Shown: one piece after another, positions 21,090 to 56,485 of the stretch | Layout: every line of letters begins with the position of its first letter | How positions within the stretch are numbered: position 1 is the stretch's first letter | Notes under the pieces: generated by a model | Database searches by the model: none | The model's input: only the letters and a program-made list of their open reading frames with translations | What the model was told of the DNA's origin: nothing | NCBI GenBank assembly: GCA_964534175.1 | Contig: CAZHNS010000003.1 | Coordinates: forward strand, 63,939-127,938 | Length of the DNA stretch: 64,000 nt | Direction of reading: 5' to 3' | DNA from: an uncultured bacterium | GTDB lineage: Bacteria; Hydrothermota; UBA3072 | Program-made: the position numbers and the translations under genes

Positions 21090-21227
21090 AAATCCCTCCC
21101 TTATTTTTAAACAAAGGTAGTTTTATATAATATTGAAGTTCATTGTATAGTCAAGGTCTGGGAGGTTTGGAGTTTCTTACTTTTTTAAATCGTAATTTCT
21201 TGAAAAATAGAAATTATGATAGTTCCC

Positions 21228-21600
21228 TCACCCAATTTCCCGTTCAGGGTACCGTTCTTAAAAATCGTAGTCAATTTCCCCGACGGTCTTATTCGTAAGG
21301 AGTACTGTTCGAGAAAACCAGAGTCAATTCTCCCGGCGAGAGAATTGCTCTTTATCTCTCGCTCTCACTCTTTTCGATTTCTTCAAAATCGAAAAACCGT
21401 GCCCGTTCGAGCTCCGAGGTATTTTCCTGAACAGTACTCCTTACTCATTTTGAAGTTTAAGTCCATGCCCGCTCAGTCTGCGAGACATTTTTTATGAAAG
21501 GCATACCTGGACTTTTAAGATTTGAAGAAAACAAAAAGAAAAACCATGCCCGCTCGGTCTCCGAGGCATTTTTCCTGAACGGTACCCTTCACTTTTTTTT
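21228..21600. repeat. Composite hairpin-rich dispersed element, copy 1 (family A)
   Basis: Shares multiple blocks with 54418-54725 (gtcaatttcccc.acgg; aaggagtactgt...acag(t/c)actcctt outer inverted repeat; ccatgcccgctcg-hairpin-ttttttatgaaaggcat.cctg.acttttaag). Confidence 0.7.
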
Positions 21601-21667
21601 ATTTATGCTGAAATATATGTTATATCTTATTTAATAAAAAAAGCATGAAACTCCAATTGGGAGGGGG

Positions 21668-22849
21668 TTAGTCTATTAGATGTTCTTCTTCGACTTTTGA
21701 AAATAAAGCGCAGATTATGGTAAGAGTCCCTAATATAATAAAAGAATAGTTTAAAGACCACTCTACCATTAATCCGACAAGGGGATATATTACTGCACAC
21801 ACGAGACTTCTTACCATCGATATAGTAGAAATGACCGTTGCTCTGTTGTGCGATTCTATATATTTATTCATATAGCTTTGGAATAGTACCATTCTAGAAA
21901 GCCCAAATCCTGCTGTAAGACATATAATTACTATTGCCAGAGGTATATTGTTATTTATACCGAGCAGTATAAAACAGATACCCGGAAAAAGAGCACTGAA
22001 AAACAAATAACGTTTTTTTGAACCGAACAATTTTTCCAATTTATCAAAACCGTTCATTATGGGTATCTGAGAACCCGACATAAGAGAGCTAACCAGACCA
22101 AAATATATTATAGGGACGCCAAGCTCACCTAATAGTGGCTGGTACATCCATATTATAAAGAAGACCAGAGCACTTATTGAGACTAAATCGAAAGTGAGTA
22201 TTTTGAGGATCTTATGACCTTTGAAATATCTGATTCCGCTTTTCAGAGTGTCTATATATTTCCCTTTTTCCTCTTTTTCGCTTTTTATGTGTGGTTCTTT
22301 AAAAGTTAAAGCTACCAGGAAAGCACTGAAGAAAGGAAAGAATACAAACATCATCGCATATCTTAATCCAATTTTGGATGCTATAAGACTTCCTATCGGA
22401 GCTGCAATCATGATAGCGGACATTTCAAAACTTCTCAATCTTCCGATAATCTTTTTCGAATTAGATTCAAGGTCGATTTCTTTTAGGGTATCGTAGAGCA
22501 TAGCTTCATCACTGCCTGAGAGTAGAGAAAATCCCAGTGCCCAGAAAAATTCTCCCACAAAGAAGATGTAAAAATTAGGGACTGAAGAATACACAAGAGT
22601 CGCTATCGATGAAGATATTGCGGCTAGAACCAGAGAGGTTTTTCTTCCGAAACGATCTGCGATTGCTCCTGTAGGAATTTCCAGTAGTAATACGACGATA
22701 ACGTAGAATGATTGCAGAATCATTATCTGTGTGTAGCTCACTTTACCCCAATCAAGATAGAAGGGTACGAGTACACCCGAGATAAACATCAGCATATATA
22801 AAAACTTATATGTATAAATTTTCCAGATATTTGCTCTATAGGTTTGCAT
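21668..22849 (-). CDS. MFS transporter
   Basis: 12-TM topology, MFS loop motif (GAIADRFGRK). Confidence 0.75.
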   Translation of the reverse strand: MQTYRANIWKIYTYKFLYMLMFISGVLVPFYLDWGKVSYTQIMILQSFYVIVVLLLEIPTGAIADRFGRKTSLVLAAISSSIATLVYSSVPNFYIFFVGEFFWALGFSLLSGSDEAMLYDTLKEIDLESNSKKIIGRLRSFEMSAIMIAAPIGSLIASKIGLRYAMMFVFFPFFSAFLVALTFKEPHIKSEKEEKGKYIDTLKSGIRYFKGHKILKILTFDLVSISALVFFIIWMYQPLLGELGVPIIYFGLVSSLMSGSQIPIMNGFDKLEKLFGSKKRYLFFSALFPGICFILLGINNNIPLAIVIICLTAGFGLSRMVLFQSYMNKYIESHNRATVISTISMVRSLVCAVIYPLVGLMVEWSLNYSFIILGTLTIICALFSKVEEEHLID

Positions 22850-22917
22850 AGGGCTTATATTATATGATTGGAGAGAACAAAGGCAAGGTGTTAGGTATTA
22901 AGTCTTAGGTTTTAGAT

Positions 22918-24358: not shown

Positions 24359-26989
24359 CTATTTAATCAACACCATTTTTTGTTTTTCGCTTTTATTATC
24401 CGATGATACACTTATAAAATACGCGCCATTGGGAAGATTGCTCATATCGATATTTAGATCATAAGTGCCCTGTCTGTCTCCTACAATTTTTTCATCCAAC
24501 CTTATTCCAGCTGTATTGAAAATCTTAAGTTTAACTTGTTCGGAAGCTGAATTGACGAATGAAATATTGCAGATTCCCTTGCTTATTGGGGAAACTTTAA
24601 GGTCAAATTTACCGTTTTCTGACTTGATGTCATTGTCTTCATCGATTCCGGCAGATGCGCGTAACTTACCCCAGATGCGTATGGCATTCGCGGGATTATC
24701 GTTGATGTCTTCTGCCCAGTTTGGGAAAACAACCAGTATTTGAGAACCTCCGCCACTGGCGGCAGCAGGATTTGTTTGGTATGGTTCTATATCAAAAGAT
24801 GCGATTGGATATATTTCGATTATTGATCCGCCGGTGTTCACCGCTGCTCCCAGTACATTCTGAACTGTTTCGCTTTGACTATTTTGGCAGCCTACAAGAT
24901 AGTTTGTACCGTCGAAAACAATAAATGTTAATGATTGGGTCCCTGAATATGGAATAATGGGAACTCCGGAAGCATCGAGAACAGTGCCGTTTTGATGAAC
25001 CCTTGCCCCGTATATATCGGACGCGTTGCTGGTACGTCTGTCTTCCCATGCTACAAGATAATTCGTTCCGTCAAATGCTACTGCCGGTAGATACTGTCCA
25101 TTGTCGGCTGTTGAAATAGCGATACTGCTCGCGTCGATTGGATTTCCGGATTGATTTACTCTTACACCATATATATCCTCCTCAAAAGTACCGGAGCTAT
25201 TATCATACCATACTACAAGGTAATTGGTTCCGTCAAAGGCGACCGAGGGATAATCCTGCGCGAGAGCATCATCGGATATTACAGTTCCGGAAGGACTTAG
25301 AAGGCTGCCGTCCGGTTCTACGAGTGTACCGTAAATATCACGGGCACCATAACCATTACGTTCGTCTGACCATACTACTAGAAAGTTTGTGCCGTCAAAA
25401 GCAACGGAAGGGTATCTCTGTCTGCCTGTTGCAGTAGAAATGGCAATTCCTGGCGGATCGAGAACATTTCCGGATGTAGTAACGCGGGCGCCATAAATAT
25501 CGTTAGTACCACTTCGGTCATCCTGCCATACGACCAGATAAGTAGAATCGTTATCAAAAGCGACCGCGGGGTAACTTTGATTTCCTGTACTTGTGGAAAT
25601 CGCTATCGCGTCCTCATTAAGTTGTTCTCCCGAAGCATCGATAAGCATTCCATATATGTCTGGAGAGAATCCTCCGCTTCGAGCTTCCTCCCAGACTACA
25701 AGATAATTTGTTCCGTCGGACGCGACTGCGGGGTTACTCTGGGACTGAGCAGAAGACGAAATTAGAATTCCATCTCCGTCGGTTACTGTACCTGATGAGC
25801 TTATCCGGCAACCGTAAATATCAGTATAACCTCCGTTTCGGTTGTCTCTCCATGCAGCTAGCCATTGACCGCTGTAAGATATTACTGCTGGTGCTACCTG
25901 TTGAGCATCAATATTGACAATAGGAATGCCCGATGGATCCTGGACTGTTCCTGATGTGTTTACCCTGGTACCGTATATATCGGGATTGCCCGCCACATCT
26001 CTATTGTCATACCATACCACGAGATAGTTTGTACCGTCGAAGCTTACGGAAGGCATGTACTGGTAATCTGCTGCAGTTGATATTGCGATTCCTGCCGGGT
26101 TAAGGACAGTTCCGTCTGTATCAAGAAGAGTACCATAAATATTGTAGTCGGAGCCCGATCGCTTGTCATACCAGACAACGAGATAATTTGTGCCGTCAAA
26201 GTCGATGGAAGGACGATTTTGTTCATCGGAAGCGATTGAAATCTCGATTCCGGACGGATCGAGGACAATACCGTCTTGATCTACCCGTGACCCGTAGATA
26301 TCGTAAGTACCGTTTCGCTTGTCCTGCCATACCACCATATAATTGGTTCCGTCAAAAGAAACGTCGGGAAAATATTTGATAGAGTCAGTAACCGATATGG
26401 CAATTCCCTCGTTGAGTACAGTACCATCTTGAGCAACTCTTGCGCCGTAGATATCATAAGAGGAACCGCCCCTGCTGTCATACCAGACTACAAGATAATT
26501 GGTTCCGTCGAAAGCAACTCTTGGACTCATCTGAGAGCCGGCCGCGTCGCTGACTGCAAAGGGCTCATCATCTAAAAGTTCTCCCTCTTTAGAAACTCTT
26601 GCACCATAAATATTATGCGGGTTAGCTCCCTCTCTATCATGCCATACTACAAGATAATTAGTTCCGTCGAAAGCAACGTCCGGGTAAGGATCAGTGTAGT
26701 CGCATTTTGCGATTAATATACCGGCGGGATCGAGAAGATTACCGTTTTCGTCGATTCGAGCTCCATAGATATCCCAACCCCCGGCACGGCAATCATTCCA
26801 GACGACAAACGCCGTTGTATCGTCGGTCGCAATACGTGAACCAGCCTGGTTTTTTATAGCCGGAACATACACAAGAGTCGTATCGATTAAAAATCCGCCA
26901 GCTCGGAGATCCCTTGATTGTGGCCAAATATTTACCGTTGCAAGAAAAGTAAATAACAGAATAGCAATAGCAATCAATTTTTTATTCAT
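24359..26989 (-). CDS. Secreted protein with about 13 tandem ~50-aa beta-propeller-type repeats (FDGTNYLVVW.D.R.G..DIYG.RV) and T9SS C-terminal sorting domain
   Basis: Signal peptide; repeat consensus resembling TolB/PD40-like blades; C-terminal ...LKIFNTAGIRLDEKIV...YDLNIDMSNLPNGAYFISV...K matches Por-secretion tail. Confidence 0.7.
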   Translation of the reverse strand: MNKKLIAIAILLFTFLATVNIWPQSRDLRAGGFLIDTTLVYVPAIKNQAGSRIATDDTTAFVVWNDCRAGGWDIYGARIDENGNLLDPAGILIAKCDYTDPYPDVAFDGTNYLVVWHDREGANPHNIYGARVSKEGELLDDEPFAVSDAAGSQMSPRVAFDGTNYLVVWYDSRGGSSYDIYGARVAQDGTVLNEGIAISVTDSIKYFPDVSFDGTNYMVVWQDKRNGTYDIYGSRVDQDGIVLDPSGIEISIASDEQNRPSIDFDGTNYLVVWYDKRSGSDYNIYGTLLDTDGTVLNPAGIAISTAADYQYMPSVSFDGTNYLVVWYDNRDVAGNPDIYGTRVNTSGTVQDPSGIPIVNIDAQQVAPAVISYSGQWLAAWRDNRNGGYTDIYGCRISSSGTVTDGDGILISSSAQSQSNPAVASDGTNYLVVWEEARSGGFSPDIYGMLIDASGEQLNEDAIAISTSTGNQSYPAVAFDNDSTYLVVWQDDRSGTNDIYGARVTTSGNVLDPPGIAISTATGRQRYPSVAFDGTNFLVVWSDERNGYGARDIYGTLVEPDGSLLSPSGTVISDDALAQDYPSVAFDGTNYLVVWYDNSSGTFEEDIYGVRVNQSGNPIDASSIAISTADNGQYLPAVAFDGTNYLVAWEDRRTSNASDIYGARVHQNGTVLDASGVPIIPYSGTQSLTFIVFDGTNYLVGCQNSQSETVQNVLGAAVNTGGSIIEIYPIASFDIEPYQTNPAAASGGGSQILVVFPNWAEDINDNPANAIRIWGKLRASAGIDEDNDIKSENGKFDLKVSPISKGICNISFVNSASEQVKLKIFNTAGIRLDEKIVGDRQGTYDLNIDMSNLPNGAYFISVSSDNKSEKQKMVLIK
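24900..26700 (-). repeat. Intragenic tandem DNA repeats (~150-bp period) encoding the blade repeats
   Basis: Recurring g(t/g)(t/g)ccgtc(a/g)aa(a/g)gc(a/g)ac...gggta blocks roughly every 150 bp. Confidence 0.55.
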
Positions 26990-27146: not shown

Positions 27147-27266
27147 GGTTGCATTGTGTATTGGGAGATAAAGGGGTTGACATGGAAATCATATACCTTA
27201 AGATTACAACAATCTGGAAAGAAATAATTATAACTAAATTCTAAATAAAGGAAAAAGGGAGGGAAA

Positions 27267-41299: not shown

Positions 41300-41365
41300 T
41301 GAGACGGAAAAGGATTGATACGGATATTCAAAGAGAGAAAGGAGCATAAAGAGAAGTCAGAGCCG

Positions 41366-41510
41366 TCGAAAATTAAAAATCAAATATCAAAGTGCAAAAT
41401 TACAAATCAAAGTTCAAAAATGAAATAAAAACGAAAAACTTTAAAGGACATGATGTAATTTTGCATTTTTATTTGGCGTTTTACTTTTTAAATTTTAATA
41501 TTTAAATTTC
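41366..41510. repeat. AT-rich imperfect palindromic dispersed element, copy 1 (family B), ~110 nt upstream of lolC/E
   Basis: aaattaaaaatcaaa...acaaatcaaagttcaaaaatgaa / ...attttgcatttttat...ttttaaattttaatattt; arms are mutual reverse complements; shared with 50942-51090 and 56306-56485. Confidence 0.65.
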
Positions 41511-50875: not shown

Positions 50876-50941
50876 AATTCTTACTTTTTAAAGTTGAGTC
50901 GGGTGCAAACAAATAAGCGACTCGGGTATCCAAATTTGTCG

Positions 50942-51090
50942 AAATTTAAAAATCAAAAATCAAAATGTAAAAATACAAATCAAAGTTCAAAAATGAATAC
51001 AAGAATCCGCAAGAATTTAAAAAGCATGAGACAATTTTGCATTTTTATATGTAATTTTGCTTTTTAATTTTTAATATTTTATTTCCCATG
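50942..51090. repeat. AT-rich imperfect palindromic dispersed element, copy 2 (family B), ~40 nt upstream of rluD
   Basis: aaatttaaaaatcaaaaatcaaaatgtaaaaatacaaatcaaagttcaaaaatgaata...attttgcatttttatatgtaattttgctttttaatttttaatatttt. Confidence 0.65.
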
Positions 51091-52211: not shown

Positions 52212-54386
52212 GTGGCTAATAAAAAGATGGATTTAGTAATAGTTGAATCCCCTGCTAAAGCCAGGTCAATAACCCATTATCTTAAAAAAACAAAAGTGAT
52301 GGCAACTATGGGCCATATTAAAGATCTTCCCAAGAGCAAGATGGGTATAGATATAGATAACGGTTTTAATCCAGATTATAAAATAATAAGAGGAAAAGGT
52401 AAAATTGTTAAGGATATAGTAAAAGAAAGTAAGAAAAGTGATAGAGTTTTTATCGCAACTGATCCGGACAGAGAGGGGGAGGCAATCGCTTTCCACCTTC
52501 AGGAAGAACTTCCTGTTGAGCCTAAAAGGGTAATGTTCTATGAAATGACAAAAAGTGGGATAAATAAGGGAATCGGAGAACCGGGTAGTATCGATATGAA
52601 TAAGGTTTTCTCTCAAAGAACCAGGAGAATCTTAGACAGGCTTGTCGGATATAAGATAAGTCCTTTGCTATGGAAGGCTATTAGAAGAGGTTTATCTGCA
52701 GGAAGGGTGCAGAGTGTGGTCTTAAGGCTTATTTGTGAAAGGGAAGAAGAAATAGACAATTTCGTTCCGGAAGATTATTGGGTTTTTGATGGTCATTTTG
52801 TGCATAAAAACGGTGAATTTAAGGCAAATCTTGAAAGAATAGATGGTAAAAAAGCGAGTATTAGAAGTAAAGAAGAAGCAGAAAAGGTAAGAAAAGATTT
52901 AAAGGACGCTAATTTTCAGGTAGGAGAATTTAAAGAGACAGACGTTAAACAATCTGCATTTCCGCCTTTGATAACAAGTACACTGCAGAGAGCTGCTTCC
53001 AATAATTTCGGGTTTCCTATAAAGAAGACGATGTATGTTGCGCAAAGGTTATATGAAGGCATTGAACTTCCCGGTGGTACTACGGGACTGATTACTTACA
53101 TGAGAACGGATTCTTTCAGGCTGTCTAAAGATGCTGAGATGAGTATGCGGAAATTCATTAAAGATAACTACGGAGAAAATTATGTGCCTGCAAAGCCCAA
53201 TGTTTATAAATCAAAAAAAGGCGCTCAGGAAGCTCATGAAGCCATTAGACCTACAGATATAAATAAAACACCGGAATCTATCAGGGAATATTTGAAGGCA
53301 GATGAGTATAAAATCTATAAACTTATATGGGAACGGGCTCTTGCGAGTCAGTTCGAGGACGCTATTTTTGATTCCAGAAAGGTTTCAGTTGTGACTTCTT
53401 CTTATGAATTCAGAGGTTCTTCGAAGAATTTGAAGTTCGATGGTTTTTATAAAATTCTTCCCGCCCCGAAAGAACAAGACATTATCCCATTGATGAAAGC
53501 AGATGATCCGGTGGAATTGAAAAAGCTTAATGATGAGAAGAAGACGACCGAGCCTCCTGCAAGATATTCGGAAGCTACAATGGTCAGAGAAATGGAAAAG
53601 AGAGGTATCGGAAGACCCAGCACTTATTCTCCTACTATATCTACTTTATTGGTTAGAACTTATATAAAAAAGATAAAGGGTTTTTTGGTCCCTCAGGAGA
53701 TTGGTAAGATCGTGAATAAAGTTTTGGTTTCTAATTTTGGTTCAACAATAATTAACTGTGATTTTACCTCTTCTATGGAGGAAACTCTTGATAAAATTGA
53801 AGATGGTAAAGGAGATTGGCAAAAGTCTATAGAGGAATTTTATGATTCTTTTAAAAATAGTATTGATGCAGTAGAAAAAAAGATTCCCGAAATTAGAGAT
53901 AGTATAAGTGAGAAAACAGACAAAGAATGTCCCAAGTGCGGTAAGAATTTAATAGTTAAATGGGGACGCTATGGTAAATTCCTGGCTTGTCCGGGTTATC
54001 CTGAAGATTGCGAAGGTTATACTGAACCTCACTCTGATGACATTTTAGATGAGAAATGTCCCAAATGCGGGGGTAAGGTAATCTTAAGGCAGGGGAGATT
54101 CGGACGATTTAAAGCCTGCGGTAATTATCCTGATTGTGATTGGAGTGCTCCGGTTTCTACCGGTGTTAAATGCCCTAAGTGTGGTAAAGGTGAATTTATT
54201 GAAAGAAAGTCCAAAAAAGGAAGGATGTTTTATCCCTGTTCCGAAGAAGAATGTGATAATGTTTTATGGAATAAACCGGTTCCTGAAGAGTGTTCCAAGT
54301 GCGGGGCGCCTTTTATGGTAGAGAAATGGAATGCGAGGGCAAATTACCTTTACTGCCTTGAATGTAAGAACAAAGAAACTTTTTAA
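52212..54386 (+). CDS. topA: DNA topoisomerase I
   Basis: Toprim N-terminus LVIVESPAKA, catalytic Tyr region, three C-terminal CxxC...CxxC zinc ribbons; start GTG 52212 or ATG 52227. Confidence 0.9.
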   Translation: MANKKMDLVIVESPAKARSITHYLKKTKVMATMGHIKDLPKSKMGIDIDNGFNPDYKIIRGKGKIVKDIVKESKKSDRVFIATDPDREGEAIAFHLQEELPVEPKRVMFYEMTKSGINKGIGEPGSIDMNKVFSQRTRRILDRLVGYKISPLLWKAIRRGLSAGRVQSVVLRLICEREEEIDNFVPEDYWVFDGHFVHKNGEFKANLERIDGKKASIRSKEEAEKVRKDLKDANFQVGEFKETDVKQSAFPPLITSTLQRAASNNFGFPIKKTMYVAQRLYEGIELPGGTTGLITYMRTDSFRLSKDAEMSMRKFIKDNYGENYVPAKPNVYKSKKGAQEAHEAIRPTDINKTPESIREYLKADEYKIYKLIWERALASQFEDAIFDSRKVSVVTSSYEFRGSSKNLKFDGFYKILPAPKEQDIIPLMKADDPVELKKLNDEKKTTEPPARYSEATMVREMEKRGIGRPSTYSPTISTLLVRTYIKKIKGFLVPQEIGKIVNKVLVSNFGSTIINCDFTSSMEETLDKIEDGKGDWQKSIEEFYDSFKNSIDAVEKKIPEIRDSISEKTDKECPKCGKNLIVKWGRYGKFLACPGYPEDCEGYTEPHSDDILDEKCPKCGGKVILRQGRFGRFKACGNYPDCDWSAPVSTGVKCPKCGKGEFIERKSKKGRMFYPCSEEECDNVLWNKPVPEECSKCGAPFMVEKWNARANYLYCLECKNKETF

Positions 54387-54417
54387 TCATTACTTATATC
54401 AGAAGATTTTATAGACT

Positions 54418-54725
54418 TGGTCAATTTCCCCAACGGTGACCGTTCGGGGTACCACTACGAAAAACCGCAGTCAGTTTCCCCTGCGGGTGATTCGCAAGGA
54501 GTACTGTCCTAGAAAGACGTGGTCAATTTCCCCAGCGAGGAAATTGCCACTCGGCTCTCGGGTTCGCTCCTCTTAAAATGCAAGCATTTTAAGAGACCAT
54601 GCTCGCTCACCCTGCGAGACGCTTTCTTGGACAGCACTCCTTGTTCATTTTATTGATAAAAATCCATGCCCGCTCGTCTCCGAGCATTTTTTATGAAAGG
54701 CATTCCTGTACTTTTGGAATTTAAA
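54418..54725. repeat. Composite hairpin-rich dispersed element, copy 2 (family A), between topA and gltX
   Basis: Block-wise homology to 21228-21600; inner stems differ in sequence but stay complementary. Confidence 0.7.
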
Positions 54726-54811
54726 GAAGATAAAGTGGTGGGGGGAGGTGGAAATGCCCTTGACTTGTCTTATAAAGGACGTATATATGTAAACTATGAG
54801 GAAGTCAATAA

Positions 54812-56266: not shown

Positions 56267-56305
56267 AATTGTATATGTAGAACCAGGCTAGGCAACACCG
56301 CTACA

Positions 56306-56485
56306 ATTTAAAAATTAAATATTAAAATGAAAAATGACAAATCAAAGTTCAAAATGAATAAAAAAACAGAGAAACAACTAATCACACGAATAATACAAAT
56401 ATTTTTTTTGTGGTTAGGGTAGGGGTATGATTTTGCATTTTTATATGTCATTTTGCTTTTTGAATTTTGATATTTGATTTACTAA
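56306..56485. repeat. AT-rich imperfect palindromic dispersed element, copy 3 (family B), ~80 nt upstream of ppiD-like gene
   Basis: aaaaattaaatattaaaatgaaaaatgacaaatcaaagttcaaaatgaata...gattttgcatttttatatgtcattttgctttttgaattttgatattt; variable centre contains gtggttagggtaggg. Confidence 0.65.

Follow-up and report, generated by a model that had tools for sequence, protein, structure and literature searches.

A probable family of miniature inverted-repeat transposable elements with a nested, recombining interior and a promoter-proximal target in WOR-3-type bacteria

Introduction

[quoted passage not shown] Here we analyze a hairpin-rich repeat, termed family A, that occurs twice in a 64,000-nucleotide stretch of DNA from an uncultured bacterium (GTDB lineage Bacteria; Hydrothermota; UBA3072; GenBank assembly GCA_964534175.1, contig CAZHNS010000003.1, positions 63,939 to 127,938 of the forward strand), hereafter called the window. 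Family A is very probably MITE-type mobile DNA and, as such, is a previously undescribed MITE family in WOR-3-type bacteria, with an unusual nested, recombining interior and a promoter-proximal target. Like bacterial MITEs, its elements are short (∼300–490 bp), non-coding, and present in many intergenic copies, and the whole element folds as a long hairpin. It differs from them in that its interior consists of nested paralogous modules with two kinds of conserved box (L- and R-boxes) and in that its center is more conserved than its ends. Correia elements, moreover, target TA, whereas family A sits at a fixed distance of ∼13 bp from a −35 hexamer and has no known cognate insertion sequence (IS).

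Pneumococcal repeats offer a second comparison. BOX elements consist of boxA, a variable number of boxB units, and boxC, with paired ends; SPRITE is terminator-like; and BOX, RUP, and SPRITE elements form clusters and insert within each other (PMC10969869). These repeats are modular and have ends that pair, as in family A, but BOX modules are in tandem and not nested with cognate arms, there is no sequence similarity, the host belongs to another phylum, and no −35 rule has been reported for BOX. Among complete insertion sequences, those of the IS4 family make duplications of ∼10 bp (8–13 bp, about one helical turn), with CT/CW ends in the IS10 and IS50 groups (PMC2266710). Family A resembles this family (IS10, IS50, and IS231 groups) in its duplication length and its CT/YT termini; however, no transposase was found for family A, and an assignment to IS4 draws on the duplication length and two terminal bases only. 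The IS10 end, CTGATGAATCCCCTAATGATTTT, is loosely like the family A end, CTGCCTACCCCCCAAAATTTTT, and to our knowledge the reported target preferences of IS4-family elements (e.g., IS231) are not promoter-linked. The BIMEs and REPINs of E. coli and the neisserial NIMEs are, like family A, mosaics of a few palindromic unit types whose number and type vary between strains at one locus; in BIMEs and NIMEs, this variation probably arises by recombination between units. Unlike family A, which has transposon ends and duplications, these repeats have neither, and they depend on RAYT or recombination. Full-text literature searches yielded no description of a promoter-targeted IS or MITE rule or of the family A motifs.

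Results

Two copies in the window

An earlier note on this DNA had described two copies with ordered shared blocks at 21228–21600 and 54418–54725. Both were found there, on the plus strand and co-oriented, and the long inverted repeats and inner hairpins were also as it described them. The two copies share 78% mean column identity (MAFFT), or 70.8% over 298 nt by blastn, and neither a hidden Markov model nor blastn detected a third copy in the window. The blocks thus stood, but the limits did not: copy 1 extends over 21168–21655 (488 bp), of which 21228–21600 is the interior, and copy 2 extends over ∼54398–54754. L-boxes of the GTCAATTTCCCC type (≤3 mismatches) start at 21270, 54420, 54470, and 54522, against a chance expectation of 0.14, and diverged L-boxes at 21232 and 21323 bring the total to six. 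The R-box, CCATGCCCGCTC plus a GC hairpin, occurs at five sites (21397, 21463, 21544, 54597, and 54664). Each copy has a long inverted repeat, 23 nt with 91% identity in copy 1 (21295–21317 and 21422–21444) and 22 nt with 91% identity in copy 2 (54495–54516 and 54622–54643), as well as a perfect inner hairpin (21371–21380 with 21386–21395, and 54570–54581 with 54584–54595). On both strands of both copies, folding is far more stable than in shuffled sequence (z between −6.2 and −7.9). The open reading frame (ORF) at 21216–21497 matches no Pfam family and crosses modules that vary between copies, and so is an artefact, as the earlier note had suspected.

The wider family and its common form

Thirty loci emerged from a pattern scan that took one genome per species; 22 are true members and 8 are chance tandem repeats. 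A scan of Joint Genome Institute (JGI) metagenomes with a 23-mer gave 47 further loci (loci of both scans are designated here by L numbers). The family now totals 73 elements, all of them intergenic. The 22 true loci come from ∼10 metagenome-assembled genomes (MAGs), all of low GC content (36–42%). With one strict pattern, MAG Zod_Metabat.145, which is labelled candidate division WOR-3, yielded seven loci, and MAG binchicken_co34_518 yielded five (six elements). The genome from which the window comes was absent from the hits; its closest relative is L006, with ∼89% nucleotide identity in the flanking genes. Two scans of viral contigs found no family member, and a phage origin, which we had considered, was rejected on that ground.

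About twenty elements carry a single module and display the complete common form, which is 299–351 bp long. It begins with 5'-CTGCCTACCCCCCAAAATTTTT and ∼110 nt of less conserved sequence, continues with a type D 5' arm, an L-box hairpin and beta core, and then an R-box and a type D 3' arm, and closes with ...AAAAAAAATGGGGGGCAGGCAA-3'. Its ends are inverted repeats of ∼20 bp (5'-CTGCCTACCCCCCAA ... TTGGGGGGCAGGCAA-3'; also written YTGCCTACCCCCC), and TGCCTACCCCCCAAAATTTTT with its complement was found in more than ten elements. Exact 10-bp direct repeats lie immediately outside these ends in L036, L043, L044, and L077, with a sequence that differs from site to site; the flanking repeat of L039 matches at 11 of 12 positions, and repeats of 7–14 bp flank L005, L007, L024, L026/L054, L064, L068, L075, and L076. 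At L077, two different MITEs with identical ends lie in tandem, flanked and separated by three copies of ∼AATTATTTAA, which indicates that the same target was used twice. Target-site duplications, which the earlier note had proposed to look for at the copy edges, are therefore present in the family (8–14 bp, ∼10 bp in most elements) and are imperfect at copy 1. As single-stranded DNA, the common form folds over its full length (z = −7.2), and it contains neither a consensus promoter nor a terminator.

No duplications could be scored at L041, L060, or L059. In the contig pairs L041/L036 and L060/L077, the element and one flank are common to both contigs and the other flank differs, which reflects either chimeric assembly across the repeat or recombination between copies. 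Other small elements accompany family A. A different element at L077 2694–2899, rich in TCTCTGTG motifs, has the G-rich terminal repeats of family A and is often its immediate neighbor, TCTCTGTG-type elements also occurring in the 3' flanks of family A in L001, L009, L016, L025, and L043; several MITE families seem to share one transposase. A ∼50-nt hairpin, CCCGTGGAATAG...CTATTCCACGGG, is inserted inside the beta core of L036, L041, L044, L060, and L077 and inside R-box loops of L017 and L025, with a related shorter hairpin in L010, and is possibly a mobile palindromic unit of a third, very small kind.

Insertion next to promoter −35 boxes

At 17 of 19 independent sites, TTGAC (once TTGAT) started at an offset of 12–16 nt beyond the final base of the element. 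The mode was 13, seen at ten sites including window copy 1; the others were 12 (two sites), 14 (three), 15 (one), and 16 (one), and the remaining two sites had offsets of 10 and 6. At random positions in the same DNA, TTGAC falls at offsets 12–15 in 0.36% of cases. By eye, a TATAAT-like box lies 16–17 nt past the hexamers and is followed by a gene, and the hexamers are for this reason taken to be promoter −35 boxes; a promoter scan confirmed this for copy 1. Either end of the element may face the promoter. The target is thus highly specific, the insertion point lying upstream of a sigma-70-type −35 hexamer, TTGAC, by the length of the 10-bp duplication plus 3 bp.

We considered whether a G-rich box with TTGAC might be an organism-wide promoter feature and rejected this, since just 10 of the 94 TTGAC sites in the window have it, three of which are L-boxes. 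One G-rich box lies directly before TTGACA at 27147–27181 (GGGAGATAAAGGGG/TTGACATGG); L-boxes and the gltX promoter aside, such sites are few in the window. All L-units (including those at 21270–21317 and 54420–54516) have, on the minus strand, the form GGGGAAATTGAC-N17-TAnnCC, like a −35 box with a weak −10 box, and the inner modules each begin ∼18 nt after GTCAA, a spacing equal to that of the genomic targets. This suggests, as a lead only, that the L-box mimics the target.

Modules, nesting, and mosaicism

The interior of an element forms a single long, imperfect palindrome composed of nested modules, each comprising a 5' arm, an L-box, a core, an R-box hairpin, and a 3' arm. The 5' half of an element is built from units of ∼52 nt (L-box, spacer, 5' arm, and short linker) and the 3' half from units of 66–81 nt (R-box hairpin, 3' arm, and A-rich tail). 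Between them lies a center made up of an L-box that folds back on itself, then a middle segment, and last a terminal hairpin with perfect pairing. The arms fall into types A, A', B, C, and D, which are diverged but recognizably homologous, and the cores into types alpha, beta, and gamma. Arms mostly pair in nested order; non-cognate series occur in both window copies, L001, L014, and L016 and argue against a need for the full nested fold.

Three loci, L006, L020, and L029, are orthologous to the locus of copy 1, with flanks 82–89% identical, and all carry an element. In the window, the stretch from the L-box at 21270 to the R-box at 21463 holds a type A 5' arm, an alpha core, and an A R-unit; in the same interval the three orthologs have a type B 5' arm and a gamma core, with the junctions exactly at the L-box and the R-box. 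By this comparison, the orphan type B 3' arm of copy 1 is a remnant of the B(gamma) cassette kept by L006 and L029. In L014 a crossover lies inside the L-box hairpin, and in the orthologous pair L018/L024 the outer layers differ. At L029 (3110–3640, compared with window 21140–22900), there is no MFS transporter gene; the ABM and GrpB genes flank the element, which is without the outer inverted-end layer present in the window, L006, and L020.

Because L-boxes, like R-boxes, are direct repeats of one another, recombination or gene conversion between copies adds, deletes, and swaps modules. The results are mosaics in which the 5' arm series does not in every case still correspond to the 3' series, and the L- and R-boxes evidently serve as anchors for recombination. 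That the nesting arose when one element simply inserted itself into another's L-box hairpin was also considered but is not supported: beyond the inner modules lies neither a duplication nor a remnant of a core, and no element has a family terminal repeat inside it.

Maintained pairing

The earlier note had read the differing inner stems of the two window copies as covariation. That part did not survive, as these stems belong to different, non-orthologous cassettes (alpha vs. beta); the pairing is nonetheless maintained across the family. Among 23 distinct beta modules, the fold is a long imperfect hairpin in which the L-box hairpin forms a side branch and the middle segment pairs with the R-box. 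In this fold, 97.9% of cells are paired and 13 pairs are changed on both sides, a level reached by none of 500 shuffles and compared with 38–50% paired in slid controls.

Arm mismatches show no asymmetry (49 G·T vs. 48 A·C); mismatch counts in the beta-module alignment lean toward G·U, but this was traced to a few shared variants. No Rfam family reached its gathering score anywhere in the window, and matches at E up to 10 were at chance level, so that the match to a known RNA family named beforehand as a possible refutation did not appear. R-units B and C contain terminator-like hairpins with T-runs, on both strands and in both window copies, which may affect transcription through the elements; they are absent from the common type D (beta) form. 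Two other functions were considered and rejected. A T-box or riboswitch leader of gltX does not fit because gltX has its promoter downstream of the element and copy 1 is oriented against its neighboring genes, and a CRISPR-like array does not fit because the would-be spacers are conserved arms and the CRISPR-like matches (e.g., L013) are chance matches in unrelated genomes.

Anatomy of the window copies

The features of copy 1 and its borders are as follows.

21149–21154, minus strand: −35 hexamer TTGACT of the ABM gene promoter (promoter scan: TTGACT, 16 nt, TATTAT)
21158–21167, no strand: left target-site duplication CTGGGAGGTT, matching 21657–21669 except for one substitution and a 3-nt G insertion
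21168–21186, plus strand: 5' terminal inverted repeat TGGAGTTTCTTACTTTTTT, 17 of 19 positions identical to the opposite strand of 21637–21655
21189–21220, plus strand: subterminal hairpin ATCGTAATTTCT / AGAAATTATGAT, an inverted repeat of 12 nt, 92% complementary
21232–21265, plus strand: degenerate L-box CCAATTTCCC and type C 5' arm, the arm pairing with 21569–21592
21270–21317, plus strand: L-unit with the L-box GTCAATTTCCCC, spacer, and type A 5' arm (21295–21317)
21323–21395, plus strand: alpha core with L-box hairpin (21325–21347), middle segment, and terminal hairpin (21371–21395)
21397–21462, plus strand: R-unit A with R-box hairpin, type A 3' arm (21422–21444), and tail
21463–21543, plus strand: R-unit B with R-box hairpin, orphan type B 3' arm (21488–21512), and A-rich tail
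21544–21592, plus strand: R-unit C with R-box hairpin, T-run, and type C 3' arm, the arm pairing with the type C 5' arm
21637–21655, minus strand: 3' terminal inverted repeat, partner of 21168–21186
21657–21669, no strand: right target-site duplication TTGGGAGGGGGTT, overlapping the MFS stop codon

By Pfam, the neighbors of copy 1 are an ABM monooxygenase gene on its start side and an MFS transporter gene on its stop side, both on the minus strand and opposite in orientation to the element. The ABM hexamer starts 13 nt past the last base of the element. The arm series is C, A on the 5' side and A, B, C on the 3' side, with no type B 5' arm; the type A arm duplex has a free energy of −34.6 kcal/mol, the alpha core recurs in L001, L009, and L016, and a terminator-like site (21553–21565) with its T-run lies within R-unit C. 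The 19-bp ends are unlike those of the common form, and the duplication (CTGGGAGGTT vs. TTGGGAGG(GGG)TT) is weaker than common-form duplications. Partly by analogy with the common form, we read copy 1 as a probably complete element whose inverted ends are a different pair and whose insertion point lies 13 bp upstream of the ABM promoter's −35 box.

Copy 2 contains the following.

54398–54419, plus strand: degenerate, internally deleted type D 5' arm (by-eye comparison with intact type D arms)
54420–54464, plus strand: L-unit with type C 5' arm, which has no cognate 3' arm in copy 2
54470–54516, plus strand: L-unit with type A' 5' arm, pairing with 54622–54643 (−34.2 kcal/mol)
54522–54595, plus strand: beta core with L-box hairpin, middle segment CTCGG..CGGGT, and terminal hairpin (54570–54595)
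54597–54663, plus strand: R-unit A' with R-box, 3' arm (54622–54643), and tail
54664–54735, plus strand: R-unit B with R-box hairpin, T-run, orphan type B 3' arm, and tail
54736–54754, plus strand: G-rich box TGGTGGGGGGAGGTGGAAA, resembling the common-form 3' end ...ATGGGGGGCAGGCAA

This copy lies between topA and gltX (Pfam), both on the plus strand; it starts 11 nt past the topA stop codon at 54386 and is without a 5' terminal repeat. Its arm series is D (degenerate), C, A' on the 5' side and A', B on the 3' side; R-unit B holds a terminator-like site (54672–54685), and there is no type B 5' arm. The core of copy 2 is one row of the beta-module alignment described above. To judge by its sequence, the G-rich box is probably a degenerate 3' terminal repeat, although uncertainly so; it lies 5 nt before the gltX −35 hexamer (TTGACT, 54760–54765), which does not fit the 13-nt rule. 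No target-site duplication is visible around copy 2, which we read as a relic, eroded, immobile, and truncated at its 5' end, that lies directly before the promoter of gltX.

Two other kinds of repeat occur in the window. A second intergenic family of ∼145–185 bp has three copies (41365–41508, 50938–51084, and 56300–56480), one of them just after gltX; it is A/T-rich and palindromic, with AAATTTAAAAATCAAATATCAAAATG... paired with ...ATTTTGCATTTTTATATG...TTTAAATTT. At 24894–26778 there are at least nine tandem repeats of 156–162 nt, some with spacings doubled to 321, which probably belong to a gene for a repeat-domain protein on the minus strand.

Discussion

The inverted ends, the duplications, the position of the target, the many copies per genome, and the mosaicism, including the cassette swap, can be read directly from the aligned loci. 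Together, inverted ends of ∼20 bp and duplications of ∼10 bp identify the family as a MITE, and the elements are also of the size expected (below ∼600 bp; 299–351 bp for the common form and 488 bp for copy 1), non-coding, and dispersed in multiple copies. The earlier note had left open whether the repeat was a structured RNA or a structure-dependent DNA element of the MITE kind; inverted ends, duplications, high copy number, and lack of coding capacity favor the latter, and for the former nothing was found beyond folding. We hold the transposase family and the targeting mechanism with less confidence than the assignment to MITEs. The enzyme would be a DDE transposase, possibly of the IS4 family, as the ∼10-bp duplications and CT/YT termini are compatible with IS4, although not specific to it, and the way in which TTGAC would be recognized is likewise inferred. 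Pairing would be kept because hairpin or cruciform DNA, or a single protein bound to both arms, matters for transposition. Complementarity may also be explained by one protein binding both arms, or by self-correction of the palindromes through template switching.

Several observations weigh against this assignment. Among 282 ORFs of at least 250 amino acids in the window and in ∼420 kb of fetched loci, none had the YREK motif, and no pair of inverted ends in the same DNA enclosed a transposase gene; the sole 2.5-kb end pair enclosed an ordinary 890-amino-acid protein. The partner gene may be encoded at another place in these genomes. No empty site was seen: a single scan for exact matches to the empty site predicted for L007 returned nothing; orthologous loci all carry an element and differ in their modules. 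Ends of the type found in copy 1 occur at only one orthologous locus (the window, L006, and in part L020), and with such locus-specific ends and an imperfect duplication, the status of copy 1 as a complete transposon depends partly on analogy, through the spacing rule and the homology of its interior. The inner modules have neither duplications nor family ends around them, which leaves the origin of the nesting unexplained. Some metagenome contigs look chimeric across the repeat. Finally, the core (alignment columns ∼20–80 and 107–135) is nearly invariant, exceeding in conservation both the terminal parts and the flanking genes; it remains so across genomes whose genes differ by 11–18%, while the terminal 5' part is much more variable. 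Such a pattern is the opposite of that usual in MITEs and is a hint of some additional role, for instance as a site bound by a protein or as an RNA.

Conservation of this kind would suit a family of structured non-coding RNA genes (small RNAs, cis-acting leaders, or terminator RNAs), with the nested helices as the product and the copies as paralogs, as would the very stable folds on both strands, the 13 doubly changed pairs in 23 modules, and the resemblance of R-units B and C to intrinsic terminators. We nevertheless consider such genes highly improbable. The family has no Rfam match, its common form has neither a consensus promoter nor a terminator, and the near equality of G·T and A·C mismatches favors neither strand as the transcribed one. 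Non-cognate arms are frequent, module number varies at orthologous loci, and elements lie in either orientation with respect to the adjacent promoter and flanking genes, while inverted ends and target duplications are features of DNA. The same terminator-like hairpins, with T-runs on both strands of copies 1 and 2, could instead mark cassettes that the host selects as insulators or terminators against read-through into the downstream promoter, their mobility being incidental or extinct. A location always just upstream of promoters and a conservation above that of the flanking genes would agree with this. However, terminator-like sites are absent from the common type D (beta) form, many copies are located between divergent genes, a setting in which nothing on the strand of the element needs a terminator, and the fixed 13-nt spacing and the duplications are explained by targeted insertion rather than by selection, so that we regard insulation as highly improbable.

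Least probable of all, in our judgment, are REP/BIME-like host palindromes (REPINs) that owe their spread to a tyrosine (HUH) transposase of the RAYT type, with single-stranded hairpins as its substrate. Family A does share with these an intergenic, clustered mosaic of palindromes, a module content that varies at orthologous sites, and conserved asymmetric arm mismatches (e.g., GA opposite CT at a fixed position) that are typical of protein-recognized hairpins. Yet HUH/RAYT systems make no target duplications, whereas those found here are ∼10 bp; the units are 50–80 nt, against 20–40 nt for REPs, and have no GTAG-type head; elements are enriched upstream of promoters and not at gene 3' ends; and no RAYT-like gene lies beside any copy in the ∼420 kb of fetched loci, in which not all ORFs were annotated.

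It is possible, although we think it rather doubtful, that the transposase selects its target through the −35 hexamer, recognizing either TTGAC itself or promoter DNA to which RNA polymerase or sigma factor is bound, and that it cuts across one helical turn beginning 3 bp upstream, the hyper-conserved L-box being a −35 mimic. An internal L-box could then bind the transposase and, given the spacing from GTCAA, could also account for the nesting.

Recognizing these hairpin repeats as mobile DNA, and not as a new class of RNA, averts their mis-annotation as ORFs, small RNAs, or riboswitches. Module swapping bounded by the boxes is a clean natural case of cassette exchange between dispersed repeats. 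The insertion sites of the family also mark promoters to the base pair, as 17 of 19 sites lie 12–16 bp upstream of TTGAC. Should the rule stem from recognition of the −35 box, or of RNA polymerase bound there, it would parallel in bacteria the promoter-targeted integration known in eukaryotes (Ty3) and would provide free promoter annotation for genomes of unculturable organisms, and the family would represent promoter-guided transposition with base-pair precision in bacteria.

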